Assembly: GCA_046328015.1 (NCBI GenBank)
Contig: JAXLXH010000001.1
Location: forward strand, 3,173,135-3,237,134
Direction: 5' to 3'
Source of the DNA: Candidatus Sericytochromatia bacterium
GTDB lineage: Bacteria > Cyanobacteriota > Sericytochromatia > UBA7694 > JACMQJ01
DNA length: 64,000 nucleotides
Shown: piece after piece, positions 1-15,828 of the stretch
How the letters are laid out: the number at the start of each line of letters is the position of its first letter
Position numbering within the stretch: position 1 is the stretch's first letter
Made by a program: the position numbers and the translations under genes
Notes under the pieces: model-generated
The model's input: only the letters and a program-made list of their open reading frames with translations
What the model was told of the DNA's origin: nothing
The model's database searches: none

Positions 1-1046
1 TCCTCAAAATATAAATAATTACTTACATCCAAATCAAAAACATGAATATTTAAATCTCTATAAGAGCAATAAGAAGCAATATTTTCCAAGGAAACCCATT
101 CACCTTCAGGCATATTTTTTATTAGTGTTAAGAGTTCTTTTTTATTAGTAATATTTCTACTTTCATAGTCTTTAGAGTTTTTTAATTCAGATTTACCTTT
201 TATATGGTTTATTAATGAGTCTAATAAAAAATGATCTCCTTCTACTAAAGCGTATAATGCTTTTCTTAAAATCATTAAATTATTATCATCATTTTTATCA
301 TGAAAATTTTTGAAAAAAGAAATTATTAATTCAGTTCTTAAATTTTCTAAGTTTTTATCTTGTGTAGCTTCATAAAATTCAGATATTTCACAAAAATCCT
401 TCATATTTCTTATAGAAGTTGGAGAAGGTTTATCTTGTTTTGAAAAAGTTATATTATCTTTAGTTACATAGTTATTATAAATAGAAATATCTTTTATTAA
501 AGTTCCATTACTAATAAAAGTAAATTCAGTTAATTCTTCTACTCTTCCTACAGGAATAATATTATAAAATTCTGGATGAGAAAGATATTTTTTAGTAGCT
601 TTTCTTAGTTCATCTGGTAAAAATAACTTATATTCAAAAGAGCCTGGTGTAATACCAGAAATTTTTTCAGAGCAAATAATACTAAAAAGAGGATTTAAAT
701 TTATTTTTGGTTCTTTTATGAGTATTTTTACCTCTAAATCTTTATCCAATTCTTCTGGTGTATATTTTATTCCAGACCAAGTTATTTTTTCAAAAACTTT
801 TTTTACATCATTAGGTAAATTTGACATCAATTCATTAAAAGAAACATCACTTGAAATTATATTAGTAAAAATTCTAGCTAATTCTTTTTTTTGAAGCTTT
901 TGATCCGAATTTGTAGTACCTTTATGCTCTAATTTTACATTTGGATTAGGTTCAAATTGTTTAAAATAATCCTTATATAATCTCAAGAGAGAATCTAAAG
1001 AATAAAAACTCTCTATAGAATTTTCTATTTTATCTCTATTTTCCAT
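1..1046 (-). CDS. hypothetical protein, N-terminal part only (C-terminus beyond left window edge); translationally coupled to upstream SNF2 helicase
   Basis: Manual minus-strand translation from ATG 1046-1044 (MENRDKIENSIESFYSLDSLLRLYKDYFKQFEP...) appears open to position 1; absent from ORF track because no stop in window. Helicase stop TAA (1049-1047) directly abuts this ATG. Confidence 0.55.
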   Translation of the reverse strand, partial: MENRDKIENSIESFYSLDSLLRLYKDYFKQFEPNPNVKLEHKGTTNSDQKLQKKELARIFTNIISSDVSFNELMSNLPNDVKKVFEKITWSGIKYTPEELDKDLEVKILIKEPKINLNPLFSIICSEKISGITPGSFEYKLFLPDELRKATKKYLSHPEFYNIIPVGRVEELTEFTFISNGTLIKDISIYNNYVTKDNITFSKQDKPSPTSIRNMKDFCEISEFYEATQDKNLENLRTELIISFFKNFHDKNDDNNLMILRKALYALVEGDHFLLDSLINHIKGKSELKNSKDYESRNITNKKELLTLIKNMPEGEWVSLENIASYCSYRDLNIHVFDLDVSNYLYFE

Positions 1047-3884
1047 TTATTTACCTAGTATATATTCAAAATCGTCTTCAGTTAACGATTTTATTGATGC
1101 ATCGTCAGAAGAAATAATAGTATCAAATAGTTCTATTTTTTTCTCTTGTAATTGTAATATTTTTTCTTCTATAGTATCTTTAGTAATTAATTTGTAACTA
1201 AAAACAGTTTTATCTTGACCTATTCTGTGAGCCCTATCAATTGCTTGATTTTCTGCGGCTTTATTCCACCAAGGATCAAAGATAAAAATATAATCTGCTG
1301 CTGTAAGATTAAGACCTAATCCGCCGGTTTTTAAAGTCATTACAAAAACTTTATATTCAGGGTCATTTTGGAATTTTTCTACTATTTCAGCTCTATTTGT
1401 AGTAGATCCTGTCATAGTAAGATGTTTTATTCCTTCTTTTTCTAAATCTTTAGATATTTTATCAACTACATTTAAAAAGTTTCCAAATACTAATACTTTA
1501 TGTTTATTAGAAATAACTTCTAAAATATTTTCTATTAAAATTTCTCTTTTTGGAGATATAATAGTATCATCAGTTTTTGATTCAGGAATAGAGGCTATTT
1601 GCCTTAATTCATTAAGAGCTTGAAGAATATAGAACTGAGATTTTGAAATCCCAGAACTAGATATTTGTTCTCTTATTGATTTATAATAGAAATTTCTTCT
1701 TTGTTCATAAAATTCTTTTTGTTCTGGACTCATTTCTACAAAAATAGTTTGTTCTATTTTTTCTGGTAATTCTTTTAGAACGTCTTTTTTTAATCTTCTT
1801 AAAATAAAAGGATAAATTTTTCTTTTTAATTCTTGAGTTACTTCTTTATTATTTTCTTTTTGTATTGGATAAGCATAATTTTTATTAAAATCATCTATAG
1901 TTCCAAACATAGAAGAGTTTAAAAATCTAAATAATGAGAATAATTCACCTAAATTATTTTCAAAAGGAGTACCACTTAAAGCTAATTTATATTTAGCTTT
2001 TAAATGCATAACAGCTCTTGAAATCTGAGAAGTTGAAGTTTTTATATTTTGAGATTCATCAAGAACTACATAATAAAAATCTTCTTCTCTAAATTTATCA
2101 CTTTCATTTCTTAACATAGAATAAGTAGTTAAAATTAAATTTTTGGTTTTAGCTTCTTTTATATCCCTATTTTGACCATAAAAGCTATAATATGTAATAT
2201 TAGGAGTGAATTTTCTTATTTCATTTTCCCAGTTAAATAATAAACTTTTTGGCATTACTATTAAAGAAGGAATATCTTGTTTTTCTGGATAAATAGAAGA
2301 TAATAAAGCTAAAGTTTGAACTGTTTTACCCAAACCCATATCATCTGCCAAGCAACCACCTAATTGGTTTTTCTCTAGGTATTTTAACCATTTAAATCCT
2401 TGTTCTTGGTAGTTTCTTAAATCTGTTTTTACAGAATCTTTTTCAAATGGTATTTCATTTATATTATTAAAACCATCTAAAATTTCTCTAGATTTTTTGA
2501 AAATTTCTGGGCTTAAATTTTCATCAATAAGCTCTTCTATTATTGGTAAATCAAAAAATGATACTTTAATTTTATTTTTTTCTTTTTTGAATAATCTTTT
2601 TAATTTATCCATATAAGATTTATTTATGATAGCATTTGTACCATCTTTTAAAATAATATTAGTATTTTTATTATAATTATCTATAAAATCATGAATACTA
2701 AAAAATTCGCCTTCTAATTCAACTTCACCACTACCTTCAAGAAAATCTATTCCATGGCTTAAAGATAAATGTAATTTAGGTTTTATTGTTTTTACTTTCA
2801 TTTCAGAAAGATTTTCGGTTCCTATAACATTATATTTAGATCCTAAAACCGGAAGTTCTTTATATATAATATCTTTAGCTACATTTTCTTCTATAATAAA
2901 CGTATCATCTATATAAAAAACATTATTTTTTATAGTGTATTGTTTTTTATACTTAGAAAGTAATCTTTCAAAATCTTCTATATAAAATTCTTTATTTTTT
3001 TCTAAAATTTTACTTACAAAAATAGTTTTTAATTCATCATTAACAAAAGCATATTTAGAAATATCATAATCTTGGAATAGTTTATAATCTGTATTAGAAA
3101 TGGATTTTAAAATTTTTATGTTTAAGTTTTTATCTTTGTCTATTTTTTCTATAGATAATACAGGAGATACAGTTTTATCTTCTCCTATTACAACATCATA
3201 ATCTTTATAAAAAATATGTAATTGTTCAAAATTAGAATATAAAATAGAAAGATATTTTTCTAATTGATTGCTTTTTAAATTTATTTCTAAATCTTTTATA
3301 TTCGAAAAGTTTTTACCTATAGATTCTGTTTTATAAATTCTTGCATTTGCATAAAAATATTTTTCTGATAATGGGATAAAATGAATTAAAGTTTCTAAAC
3401 CGTTATATAAAGATAAAGTCGTAGCTAAAATACTTTCGCCTTCTATAGTTAATCTTATTTTAGATTTTTCTGTATCAAATGTAATTTTTCTAAAATTAGT
3501 ATCAACAAAGTAATTAGCCGATTCTAATTTTTCTAAAAGAGATTCATTTTCATCTAAGTAAATTTTATTATAATCTTTATTTAACCAATTAAAAGTAAGA
3601 TATTTTTTCTCGGTTATTTTCAAGATTTCTTTTACTAATTCAGAATCTTTTTTTCTTTCAAGAGCTCTAATATCTATTTCATTGTCATCTATATCAACAA
3701 CCTTTATATAAGCTCTTTTATCTAAATCGAAATTTAGTTGAAAATAGATATTATTATTTATATTACTATGATCTATTTTTTCAAATTTATCTATTTTATA
3801 CTTTTCAAAAAAATCTAATTTGCTATTACTCATTAATATTTTATTTATTACAATTTTATTTTTTAAGAAAAACACTATAAACAA
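1047..3884 (-). CDS. SNF2-family DNA/RNA helicase with ~490-aa N-terminal extension of unknown function
   Basis: Walker A LADDMGLGKT, DESQ box, helicase-C block LKTGGLGLNLTAADYIFIFDPWWNKAAENQAIDRAHRIGQ. Track start is TTG; first ATG is at codon 18 (3833). Confidence 0.85.
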   Translation of the reverse strand: MFIVFFLKNKIVINKILMSNSKLDFFEKYKIDKFEKIDHSNINNNIYFQLNFDLDKRAYIKVVDIDDNEIDIRALERKKDSELVKEILKITEKKYLTFNWLNKDYNKIYLDENESLLEKLESANYFVDTNFRKITFDTEKSKIRLTIEGESILATTLSLYNGLETLIHFIPLSEKYFYANARIYKTESIGKNFSNIKDLEINLKSNQLEKYLSILYSNFEQLHIFYKDYDVVIGEDKTVSPVLSIEKIDKDKNLNIKILKSISNTDYKLFQDYDISKYAFVNDELKTIFVSKILEKNKEFYIEDFERLLSKYKKQYTIKNNVFYIDDTFIIEENVAKDIIYKELPVLGSKYNVIGTENLSEMKVKTIKPKLHLSLSHGIDFLEGSGEVELEGEFFSIHDFIDNYNKNTNIILKDGTNAIINKSYMDKLKRLFKKEKNKIKVSFFDLPIIEELIDENLSPEIFKKSREILDGFNNINEIPFEKDSVKTDLRNYQEQGFKWLKYLEKNQLGGCLADDMGLGKTVQTLALLSSIYPEKQDIPSLIVMPKSLLFNWENEIRKFTPNITYYSFYGQNRDIKEAKTKNLILTTYSMLRNESDKFREEDFYYVVLDESQNIKTSTSQISRAVMHLKAKYKLALSGTPFENNLGELFSLFRFLNSSMFGTIDDFNKNYAYPIQKENNKEVTQELKRKIYPFILRRLKKDVLKELPEKIEQTIFVEMSPEQKEFYEQRRNFYYKSIREQISSSGISKSQFYILQALNELRQIASIPESKTDDTIISPKREILIENILEVISNKHKVLVFGNFLNVVDKISKDLEKEGIKHLTMTGSTTNRAEIVEKFQNDPEYKVFVMTLKTGGLGLNLTAADYIFIFDPWWNKAAENQAIDRAHRIGQDKTVFSYKLITKDTIEEKILQLQEKKIELFDTIISSDDASIKSLTEDDFEYILGK

Positions 3885-4075
3885 TAGTTTATAGTATCTT
3901 AGGATTAAATAATTTTATAATCCTAAACCTTTACTAAGTAAAACTTAGTATTAATTTTCAAACTACTTTTATCAAGTTAAGAACAGGTAAATTAGTATTA
4001 TACTATTAGATTGATTTTTATCAAATAAGATAATACTTATACTATTGTAATGAAGTTGAAATTAATTTATTAATT

Positions 4076-4119
4076 TTGAACTAGAAACTTAGACTAATTA
4101 GTCTAAGTTTCTAGTTCAA
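4076..4119. repeat. perfect 44-bp palindrome (20-bp arms, AATT centre) in divergent intergenic region
   Basis: ttgaactagaaacttagact aatt agtctaagtttctagttcaa read directly; followed by an A-run. Confidence 0.8.
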
Positions 4120-4140
4120 AAAAAATTCTTTTTATCTTAA

Positions 4141-4230
4141 CTCACCCCAACCCCTCTCTAAATCATTAGAGAGGGGTATCTTAGCTTTCTCCCCTTCTCT
4201 TTTAGCAAAGAGAAGGGGAAGGGGGATGAG
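4141..4230. repeat. nested palindromic repeat, family A copy 1 (REP-like)
   Basis: ctcaccccaacccctctctaaatcattagagagggg plus second hairpin ctccccttctcttttagcaaagagaaggggaag; GC-rich island in AT-rich DNA; related copy at 7263. Confidence 0.7.
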
Positions 4231-7262: not shown

Positions 7263-7300
7263 CTCACCCCAACCCCTCTCTAAACTTTAGAGAGGGGCTT
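7263..7300. repeat. palindromic repeat family A copy 2 (possible proS terminator hairpin)
   Basis: ctcaccccaacccctctctaaactttagagagggg, near-identical to 4141-4175; 38 bp downstream of proS stop. Confidence 0.65.
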
Positions 7301-14247: not shown

Positions 14248-15828
14248 ATGTATTTAACTAGAGGTCAAAGAATAAAGTTAGTAGATTATACAAAATCTAC
14301 TAACTTTATTATAAAAATAAAACTTCAAGGAAATAATAAAGAAGAATATGATATAAGCTGTTTTGGTTTAGATTCAGAAGAAAAGTGTTCAGATGATAAA
14401 TATATGGTATTTTATAATCAGAAAAAAACTCCATGTAACAGTATAATTATTAAAGAAGAATATTTTGATAATGAATTAAGTTTTGAAATAAATATTAATA
14501 AATTACCTGAAAAAATACAAAAAATATCTTTTACTGCAACTGTTGATGGCATTGGAGTAATGTCTGATTTAAAAGAAGGTAGCATATCTTTAATAGAAAA
14601 TTTTGAAAATAAATTTACATATAAATTTACAGGTAATGATTTTAAAAACGAAAAATCATTAATGCTAGGAGAGATTTATTTTAAAGATGAATGGAAATTT
14701 TATGCAAAAGGTTTTGGTTTTAATGGTGGATTAAGTTCTTTACTAGAATACTTTGGTATAGAAGAAGAACAAGAAATAACTAGTAATATAGAAATAATAA
14801 ATTTAAACAGTATCGTAGAAGAAGAGCCTCCTTTACCTAAAAAAAATTTAGGAGAATTTTTCAAAAATATTTTATTAACTCCTTTTAAATATGTTGAAAA
14901 AAAAATAGATGAAAAAAAAGAATTACAAGAAAGACAAAATTTAGAAGAATCTATAATTCAAAAAAAACTTAAATTTAAACAAATTCTTATAGATTATTTA
15001 TCAGATGGAGTTTTAACAAATACAGAAATGAATAATCTAGAAGTATTTTGTATTGAAAATAATATTAATATTGATGAATGCTTATATTCATCTAAGTATG
15101 AAGTTGAATCTTTTTTGAGATTACTTTTAGCTAATATTGTATCTGATTTTATTGTAACTCAAGAAGAAGAAAATACAATAAAGAGTGTTTGTTCTTTTTT
15201 GAAACCATCAATTCAAATAATTGAAGAAATTGAATCGACAATATATAGAGTTAAAGAACTCTCTAAAATAAGAAAAGGAGAAGTTTATCCAATAGATAAC
15301 CCTAAAATAATAACTAAATTAAGTGAGTTAGTTTGGTATATAGAATATAATATAAAAATATTAAAAATAACAAAGAAAGACTTAATACATTATAAAGGTG
15401 ATTTATTTGTTACTAGTGATAGATTATTATTTAAATCTCAAGATTATCCATTAGAAATATCCTTAAAAAATATTATTGATTTAGAATATAGTGGTTTGGA
15501 TTTATATATAACTGGTAATACGAATAAGTCTACTTGTCAATTTAAATTATATGAAGGTGAAAAATTACTAGCTTATATAGAACAAGCTTTAAATAAATTC
15601 CATAGAAAATTAGATTTTTCTAATTCAAATAAAAAAACAAGAACTATTCCTCAAACAGTAAGGCAAGAAGTTTGGTTAAGAGATCAAGGACAATGTGTTG
15701 AATGTTTAGCTACAGAATATTTAGAATATGATCATGTTATTCCATTTTCAAAAGGTGGTTCTAATTCAACTAATAATATTCAATTATTATGTAGAAAATG
15801 TAATTTAAAAAAAAGTGATCGTATTTAA
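14248..15828 (+). CDS. multidomain protein: N-terminal TerD domain, helical linker, bacterial PH-like domain, C-terminal HNH endonuclease
   Basis: TerD-like LTRGQRIKL...DISCFGLD...VFYNQ...GEIYFKDEWKFYAKGFGFNGGLSSL; HNH motif CVECLATEYLEYDHVIPFSKGGSNSTNNIQLLCRKCNLKKSD. Confidence 0.8.
   Translation: MYLTRGQRIKLVDYTKSTNFIIKIKLQGNNKEEYDISCFGLDSEEKCSDDKYMVFYNQKKTPCNSIIIKEEYFDNELSFEININKLPEKIQKISFTATVDGIGVMSDLKEGSISLIENFENKFTYKFTGNDFKNEKSLMLGEIYFKDEWKFYAKGFGFNGGLSSLLEYFGIEEEQEITSNIEIINLNSIVEEEPPLPKKNLGEFFKNILLTPFKYVEKKIDEKKELQERQNLEESIIQKKLKFKQILIDYLSDGVLTNTEMNNLEVFCIENNINIDECLYSSKYEVESFLRLLLANIVSDFIVTQEEENTIKSVCSFLKPSIQIIEEIESTIYRVKELSKIRKGEVYPIDNPKIITKLSELVWYIEYNIKILKITKKDLIHYKGDLFVTSDRLLFKSQDYPLEISLKNIIDLEYSGLDLYITGNTNKSTCQFKLYEGEKLLAYIEQALNKFHRKLDFSNSNKKTRTIPQTVRQEVWLRDQGQCVECLATEYLEYDHVIPFSKGGSNSTNNIQLLCRKCNLKKSDRI

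Follow-up and report, generated by a model that had tools for sequence, protein, structure and literature searches.

What could be the function of a SNF2-family helicase gene with a long N-terminal extension, the stop codon of which directly abuts the start codon of a second gene? This question is raised by the left end of a 64,000-nucleotide (nt) stretch of DNA, hereafter the window, from a Candidatus Sericytochromatia bacterium (assembly GCA_046328015.1, contig JAXLXH010000001.1, positions 3,173,135 to 3,237,134). A first-pass annotation of this DNA had proposed that the helicase and its downstream neighbour, here called the partner, could form a module of two or more genes that extends past the left edge of the window, possibly as part of a phage-defence or DNA-modification system. 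We found that helicase and partner are a conserved two-gene unit. The defence reading is not supported; on balance, the two genes probably specify a DNA translocase of two subunits: a partner resembling the p52 subunit of the transcription factor TFIIH would bind and regulate the SNF2 motor. The features of the locus are listed in Table 1.

The pairing of the two genes is retained over large phylogenetic distances. In contigs with close relatives of the partner, a SNF2 gene of 924-928 amino acids (aa) always lies directly upstream on the same strand, 0-3 nt apart, while every other neighbour differs. When one genome per species was scanned, 28 full-length partner loci were recovered from Sericytochromatia, Desulfobacterota, Cyclobacteriaceae, Desantisbacteria, KSB1, SAR324, and Methylococcales, and in 23 of these a helicase with the same extension immediately preceded the partner (at least seven phyla or candidate phyla). 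The helicase also adjoins the partner in all ten metagenome loci with sufficient upstream DNA; in genomes and metagenomes together, the lineages that harbour the pair include Bacteroidota and Fusobacteriota. As these locus scans rest on one degenerate peptide pattern, the counts are samples rather than a census. Orthologous junctions mostly range from -4 to +3 nt and in some cases from 21 to 65 nt, as judged by the coordinates of the open reading frames (ORFs). Among cultured organisms, Fusobacterium vincentii has the pair (899 aa and 597 aa, 0-nt gap), as does Chondrinema litorale, in which it lies on a 524-kb replicon between insertion sequence (IS) elements. Contigs of the Fusobacterium ulcerans/varium cluster carry it as well, flanked by a Rep3-like gene. 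A search with the helicase extension alone led to SNF2 proteins named by source as Cetobacterium, Bacteroidota, and ‘Candidatus Vecturithrix’, and a partner homologue followed in each of the three contigs examined (23-25% identity in the two full-length ones). Taken together, these loci corroborate the earlier proposal of a genuine module and argue against a chance juxtaposition.

The two genes also diverged together. Relative to the window copy, identity amounts to 60-88% in the ATPase core, 31-62% in the extension, and 23-61% in the partner. Across 22 loci, the identities of the two helicase parts (helN and helC) and of the partner correlate with each other (r 0.91-0.94), indicating that the parts were inherited together. 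The nearest relatives of the window copy are found in the same class (36-61% compared to 25-30% elsewhere), which suggests a long vertical residence of the pair in the source lineage rather than rapid exchange.

Regarding the extent of the module, the partner ORF is open for 348 codons up to the left window edge, and these 348 aa are 100% identical to the start of a 598-aa protein (P0001) from a ‘Candidatus Sericytochromatia bacterium’ metagenome-assembled genome (MAG). The module thus continues past the edge by approximately 250 further partner codons, as had been anticipated, but the larger module also considered at that time did not materialize: no third gene is conserved across lineages. 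In relatives with available DNA beyond the partner, the genes downstream of it vary from lineage to lineage (rhodanese, acetyltransferase, von Willebrand factor A, glutaredoxin, AMP-ligase), and the module therefore ends with the partner. At the junction itself (...GGTAAA TAA ATG GAA...), the helicase stop at 1049-1047 is followed by the partner ATG at 1046-1044 with a gap of 0 nt, exactly as noted in the first-pass annotation, and a scan revealed no terminator-like site between the two genes.

Two side observations concern the composition of individual loci. In L011, L012, and L013, the helicase and partner genes are split into several ORFs. The frameshifts in L012 and L013, which are ‘polypolish’ long-read assemblies, are probably assembly errors, and such errors would explain many of the truncated-looking database entries of the helicase. 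Additionally, in Fusobacterium only, a conserved gene for a 237-aa protein with a metallo-beta-lactamase (MBL) fold (Lactamase_B_3) immediately precedes the SNF2 gene in the same orientation (3573-4286 in L047 and 5411-6124 in L067). It lies 2 nt from the SNF2 gene in F. vincentii, the proteins of F. vincentii and of the F. ulcerans/varium cluster share 43% identity, and the gene is absent from all other lineages examined, the window included. The MBL-fold protein may serve as a third subunit specific to this lineage, conceivably with hydrolase or nuclease activity.

The helicase ORF spans 3884..1047 on the minus strand, and the ATG at 3833 is its most plausible start, resulting in a protein of 928 aa. 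An ORF of 928 codons at 23% G+C is far beyond chance. A Mycoplasma-type genetic code, which we considered given the G+C content of the window of about 24%, was unnecessary, since the long ORFs are clean under table 11. Domain searches, suggested earlier for both proteins, assigned SNF2-rel_dom (PF00176, aa 475-748, E 2.8e-71) and Helicase_C (PF00271, aa 764-872, E 2.4e-19) to the helicase and no Pfam family to the partner. Motifs I (GLGKT), II (DESQ), III (SGTP), and VI (QAIDRAHRIGQ) are all intact in the translation, so the ATPase should be active. Both lobes, these motifs, and the structural match described next place the protein in the SNF2/Swi2 family, in agreement with its first assignment. 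The nearest solved structure of the core is the SNF2 protein SSO1653 of Sulfolobus (1z63, E 1.4e-96, aa 464-923), followed by Mot1 and then by the chromatin remodellers ISWI, Snf2, and Ino80; Rad26 ranks much lower (E ~1e-56).

Comparison with named SNF2 families located the helicase outside of them. It matches the NCBIfam models of ZorD (NF041790; 247 bits, cut-off 1500), DrmD (95 bits, cut-off 950), and DpdE (70 bits, cut-off 500) over the generic core only and far below the cut-offs, and it reaches 35.9 bits against the RapA equivalog NF003426 (cut-off 576). Likewise, its matches to the PADLOC models of DISARM DrmD, Dpd DpdE, and BREX BrxHII are confined to the core, and the companion genes of these systems are absent in 31 loci. 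YwqA-type bacterial SNF2 proteins are defined by a PF08455 (SNF2_assoc) N-terminus and an adjacent SWIM zinc-finger protein. Neither the window protein nor any of 20 orthologues matched PF08455 at E <= 1, and the partner, which lacks any Pfam match in the 76 members scanned, has no SWIM domain. Judged by these profiles, the helicase is a SNF2 family member outside the ZorD, DrmD, DpdE, RapA, and SNF2_assoc/SWIM types.

The N-terminal extension of the helicase had been described as a region of about 490 aa without recognizable motifs. Its length is closer to 470 aa, and the lack of a Pfam family holds for the window protein and 20 orthologues; nor did the extension profile match any PDB sequence. 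However, its C-terminal part (aa ~345-470) is within reach of other bacterial SNF2 models, with alignments that begin at aa 345 for PADLOC ZorD1 and at aa 388 for NCBIfam NF053675; those of yeast Snf2 chains begin at aa 391. According to these alignments, aa ~345-470 is a pre-ATPase module common to other bacterial SNF2 proteins, which leaves approximately aa 1-345 as the truly orphan part. Across phyla, where identity in the extension is 31-62% as given above, the motifs GIDFLEG, DGTxAIIN, and SFFDLPxxEE are invariant.

The partner belongs to a large family. An exhaustive profile search yielded 1,581 clusters at 50% identity with E < 1e-3 and 622 with E < 1e-30, which corrected the seven clusters seen in a word-indexed search; a second indexed search with a 76-sequence profile added little. 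Members are about 600 aa long, or about 860 aa with an N-terminal HEAT-repeat extension. The 86 members scanned did not match any entry in Pfam, NCBIfam, PADLOC, or PDB sequences. Invariant residues of the family are G390, G427, W524, and G594, and nearly invariant ones are mostly aromatic residues, proline, and glycine; no catalytic-looking motif or enzyme signature is present among the conserved residues. Neither the partner nor the helicase contains a nuclease, methylase, or other effector domain.

The link to TFIIH emerged from the predicted structure of the partner. An AlphaFold2 model based on the 76-sequence alignment reached a predicted local distance difference test score (pLDDT) of 89.9 and a predicted template modelling score (pTM) of 0.82; an earlier model from seven sequences (pLDDT 66.6) was discarded. 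In a Foldseek search against the PDB, the 14 best matches had a length fitting p52/Tfb2 and aligned over approximately 560-580 columns (E 3.7e-7 to 2e-3). For several of them, the identity as p52/Tfb2 was confirmed by a PDB search with human p52 (8ebt_D, 7o4i_2, 5oqj_2, and entries 7zs9, 7k01, and 7ml0). The next matches were XPB/Ssl2 chains with about 160 aligned columns, and no viral structure matched the model at E <= 0.001, which served as a specificity control. In the model, the partner is thus collinear with p52/Tfb2, with a winged-helix array followed by ‘clutch’ and C-terminal domain (CTD) alpha/beta modules. An indirect sequence link points in the same direction. The partner profile aligned by hhalign with a Rhodococcus ‘helicase-associated domain-containing protein’ (probability 99.4%, E 8.5e-22, 392 columns) that contains the XPB N-terminal domain family PF13625 (Helicase_C_3) above the gathering score (E 7e-12), and this PF13625 region aligns to approximately aa 486-567 of the partner. 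Additionally, the UniRef name of one F. ulcerans member of the partner family is ‘Helicase XPB/Ssl2 N-terminal domain-containing protein’.

The translocase reading builds on several observations: two paired genes that are conserved and diverge together, a motor with intact motifs, the partner's fold, and surroundings without signs of defence. That the two proteins form a complex, how the ATPase is regulated, and what the pair does in the cell we infer by analogy with TFIIH, as follows. The motor would be a SNF2 double-stranded DNA (dsDNA) translocase of the SSO1653 type with its own orphan N-terminal region of about 345 aa. The partner would act as a non-enzymatic adaptor, in which N-terminal helical and winged-helix modules are followed by C-terminal alpha/beta modules of the XPB N-terminal domain (NTD)/p52 ‘clutch’ type. 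These C-terminal modules may dock on the helicase, with the N-terminal extension as our best guess for the site, and thereby tune the ATPase of the motor. The winged-helix array, together with the HEAT repeats in long forms, could tether the motor to DNA or to another protein, and the tethered translocase would strip or reposition DNA-bound proteins or open DNA locally. Within TFIIH itself, p52 is held in the complex by its N-terminal winged-helix domains; the p52 clutch and the like-folded NTD of XPB form a pseudo-symmetric dimer, the p52 CTD binds p8, and together they cradle RecA2 of XPB (PMC6422496). Interaction with p52 stimulates the XPB ATPase (PMC3353954), and the role of p52 toward XPB was also drawn from PMC13024598. 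We found no paper describing a SNF2 ATPase with a p52-like partner.

Several results weigh against this reading. The resemblance of the partner to p52 is structural only, and its link to PF13625 is indirect: the Tfb2, Tfb2_C, and PF13625 profiles had no match at E <= 1 in 76 plus 10 partner members, hhalign against human p52 gave nothing (probability 0.1%), and hhalign against the human XPB NTD was not significant (E 0.089), though in the expected register. The partner is p52-like in its fold, yet no member of Pfam Tfb2 by sequence. Furthermore, the N-terminus of the helicase has no sequence similarity to the XPB NTD or to the partner, which makes the docking site a guess; hhalign of the extension with the full partner, and of 40 pairs of segments from the two, returned no significant match. 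A 29-column beta-beta-alpha match between helN 390-418 and partner 566-594 had a probability below 2% and was disregarded. No helicase is found next to seven of the partner homologues (L017, L025, L028, L030, L034, L051, and L055), of which five belong to the 28 genome loci, all of them long-form, and two to the metagenome loci. More distant solitary relatives of approximately 585-591 aa reside on conjugative plasmids or in variable regions. Finally, the patchy distribution of the 1,581 clusters indicates that the pair serves no universal housekeeping function.

Some details of the solitary relatives are worth recording. At least L017, L025, L028, L030, and L034 are long-form proteins of approximately 690-860 aa, several with HEAT repeats. 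L034 is located between guaB and guaA, and the same MAG also has a helicase-linked copy (L021). The distant relatives share partner aa ~277-432 or 274-594 and were found at 5179-6954 in L048 (Polaromonas pPNAP01) and at 5176-6933 in L042 and L049 (Vibrio, Shewanella). The Polaromonas relative adjoins Hachiman HamA/HamB and a SbcC-like ATPase.

With solitary relatives on conjugative plasmids and one of them beside Hachiman, a conflict-related role of the family is conceivable. The pair could accordingly be an uncatalogued two-gene anti-phage or anti-plasmid system. Its winged-helix-rich partner would recognise foreign DNA or a phage protein, and the SNF2 motor would act as effector, for instance through replication stalling or phage-protein eviction. 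The fact that SNF2 helicases form the cores of several defence systems, the good scores of the helicase core against the PADLOC models of DpdE, ZorD, and DrmD, and the patchy taxonomic distribution are in line with such a system, as are the Chondrinema copy between IS elements and the Rep3-like gene beside the F. ulcerans/varium copy. We nevertheless consider it rather unlikely. The core-only matches far below the NCBIfam cut-offs, the lack of a PADLOC match for the partner and of an effector domain in either protein, and the indications of long vertical residence all argue against it, and so does the genomic context. In the window, the genes to the right of the helicase encode a DUF4920 protein, a PepSY-like protein, prolyl-tRNA synthetase (ProRS), an amino-acid permease, and thioredoxin-like proteins. 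Defence-island neighbours, the search for which had been proposed earlier, did not emerge among the common families: of the 87 flanking proteins scanned in 31 loci, most belonged to such families as enoyl-CoA hydratase, aminopeptidase P, PdxA, sensor kinases, and ferredoxins, which were the most frequent, and the 25 commonest families listed include no restriction, methylase, toxin, or other defence family. The pair shows no compositional anomaly (22.7% G+C compared to 24.4% in the remainder of the window), and neither 50,697 phage records nor the IMG/VR viral contigs contained a match to the partner. The earlier suggestion of a phage-defence or DNA-modification system thus finds no backing. 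The first-pass annotation had also named conserved housekeeping synteny as an observation that would speak against its proposal, and the housekeeping and metabolic neighbours come close to this. Overall, the context points to a chromosomal DNA transaction, such as transcription, repair, or nucleoid remodelling, rather than to a canonical defence island.

Transcription is also the setting of a further alternative, a transcription-coupled remodeller similar to RapA, Mot1, or CSB. Here, the helicase N-terminus would bind RNA polymerase (RNAP), the motor would rescue or remove stalled complexes, and the partner would be a specificity factor. Mot1 is among the closest solved cores after SSO1653, the context is chromosomal and housekeeping-like, and the p52-like fold of the partner stems from a transcription and repair factor. 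However, the RapA score is far below its cut-off, Pfam and the PDB profile search revealed no recognizable RNAP-binding domain in helicase aa 1-470, and nothing in this analysis ties the pair to RNAP genes. We regard the remodeller as improbable in this specific form; it is moreover a special case of the translocase with a p52-like adaptor and no true alternative to it. That the adjacency reflects conserved synteny of two functionally independent genes, for which the seven partner homologues without a helicase might be cited, is hardly credible given junctions of 0-3 nt kept across phyla while other neighbours change, the co-divergence of both genes (r ~0.9), and a helicase extension that always occurs with this partner in every locus examined.

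Table 1 Features of the helicase-partner locus (window coordinates)
Feature	Position	Strand	Remarks
SNF2-family ATPase gene	1047..3833	-	928 aa + TAA stop; ORF, translation, Pfam
Helicase N-terminal extension, aa 1-470	2424..3833	-	~aa 1-345 orphan; aa ~345-470 putative pre-ATPase module
SNF2 ATPase core, aa 471-928	1050..2423	-	60-88% identity to orthologues of other phyla; motifs I, II, III, VI
TAA-ATG junction	1044..1049	-	0-nt gap, read from sequence
Partner gene, 5' part, p52/Tfb2-like (fold model)	1..1046	-	348 of 598 codons; C-terminal 250 codons outside window
Candidate operon promoter, sigma-70-like	3997..4024	-	TTGATA-16-TATAAT, 11/12; consensus scan only

The candidate promoter is located approximately 165 nt 5' of the helicase ATG. 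Further upstream, in the divergent intergenic region, we observed a palindrome at 4069-4126 with 29-nt arms that are 93% complementary, no spacer, and a subsequent T-run. The scan scored it as terminator-like, but a terminator would be unusual at this site, 5' of the helicase promoter, and the palindrome may instead represent an operator or a repeat. It is followed at 4141-4228 (minus strand) by a structured element that is GC-rich in a genome of 23% G+C and consists of an outer stem around two hairpins of 12-14 bp (RNA minimum free energy -59.1 kcal/mol, z -7.8). A second partial copy, comprising the 3' hairpin and a G-tract (CCCCTCTCTAA...TTAGAGAGGGGTTGGGGTGAGTT), lies at 7263-7300 just past the ProRS gene. 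The element has no Rfam match and could be a repeat similar to repetitive extragenic palindromes (REP) or miniature inverted-repeat transposable elements (MITE), or a small RNA. Elsewhere in the window, at 14248-15828 on the plus strand, a 526-aa protein combines an N-terminal TerD domain with a C-terminal HNH endonuclease domain, an unusual fusion of stress-response and nuclease modules.

To our knowledge, functions or partners have been established for very few bacterial SNF2 ATPases. The present analysis defines a widespread, uncharacterised two-gene unit that occurs in cultivable Fusobacterium and Chondrinema, and it provides a testable role for two orphan regions, namely the helicase N-terminus and a family of ‘hypothetical proteins’ of about 600 aa without a Pfam model. 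If the resemblance to p52 reflects common ancestry or mechanism, the pair may offer a simple bacterial model for p52-type control of a dsDNA translocase and a data point on the origin of the XPB-p52-p8 sub-module of TFIIH. A 2012 study on mycobacterial XPB stated that p52 homologues had not been found in bacteria (PMC3353954). Tentatively, and with considerable doubt, the partner might be genuinely, if very distantly, related to TFIIH p52/Tfb2, and the operon a prokaryotic motor with a p52-type adaptor that serves SNF2 instead of XPB. In that case, p52-type helicase adaptors would predate eukaryotes and would not be bound to one motor, and bacteria would open DNA or evict proteins by means of a tethered SNF2 translocase, in parallel to promoter opening and nucleotide excision repair by TFIIH.

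The pair can further be compared with known systems. The SNF2 proteins of defence systems (Zorya ZorD, DISARM DrmD, Dpd DpdE, BREX BrxHII) share the core with the helicase, and their PADLOC models align to aa ~345-920. Unlike in these systems, the helicase has no nuclease domain, whether of the Mrr type or another, no PADLOC model is related to the partner, and none of the companions ZorABC, DrmABC/MI, DpdA-K, or BrxABCX-PglZ was found near the window pair or in the 31 loci. RapA (HepA) is a stand-alone, chromosomal, RNAP-associated bacterial SNF2 protein of about 950 aa with a long N-terminal region, but it works without an operonic partner. SSO1653, a Rad54-like core of Sulfolobus solfataricus, is similar in its dsDNA-translocase-type motor with intact motifs; the solved fragment lacks an N-terminal extension, and no p52-like partner has been described for it. 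On the side of the partner, the PF13625 ‘helicase-associated’ proteins, represented by WP_120661687.1 of Rhodococcus opacus, are homologous over the columns aligned above (~390). WP_120661687.1 is shorter (448 aa), lacks the N-terminal ~190 aa, has no helicase beside it in the locus examined, and matches PF13625, which the window partner family does not. A parallel in architecture is the XPB-p52(-p8) assembly of TFIIH. Its motor is XPB and not SNF2, its other subunits have no counterpart here, and p52 is shorter than the partner (598 aa, or ~860 aa with HEAT repeats) and without detectable sequence similarity to it. Nevertheless, both systems would combine a superfamily 2 (SF2) dsDNA translocase with a non-enzymatic adaptor built from N-terminal winged-helix domains and C-terminal alpha/beta ‘clutch’/CTD modules; the model of the partner is collinear with p52/Tfb2 over nearly its whole length and also aligns with the XPB NTD, and the C-terminal half of the partner shares homology with a protein that carries PF13625.

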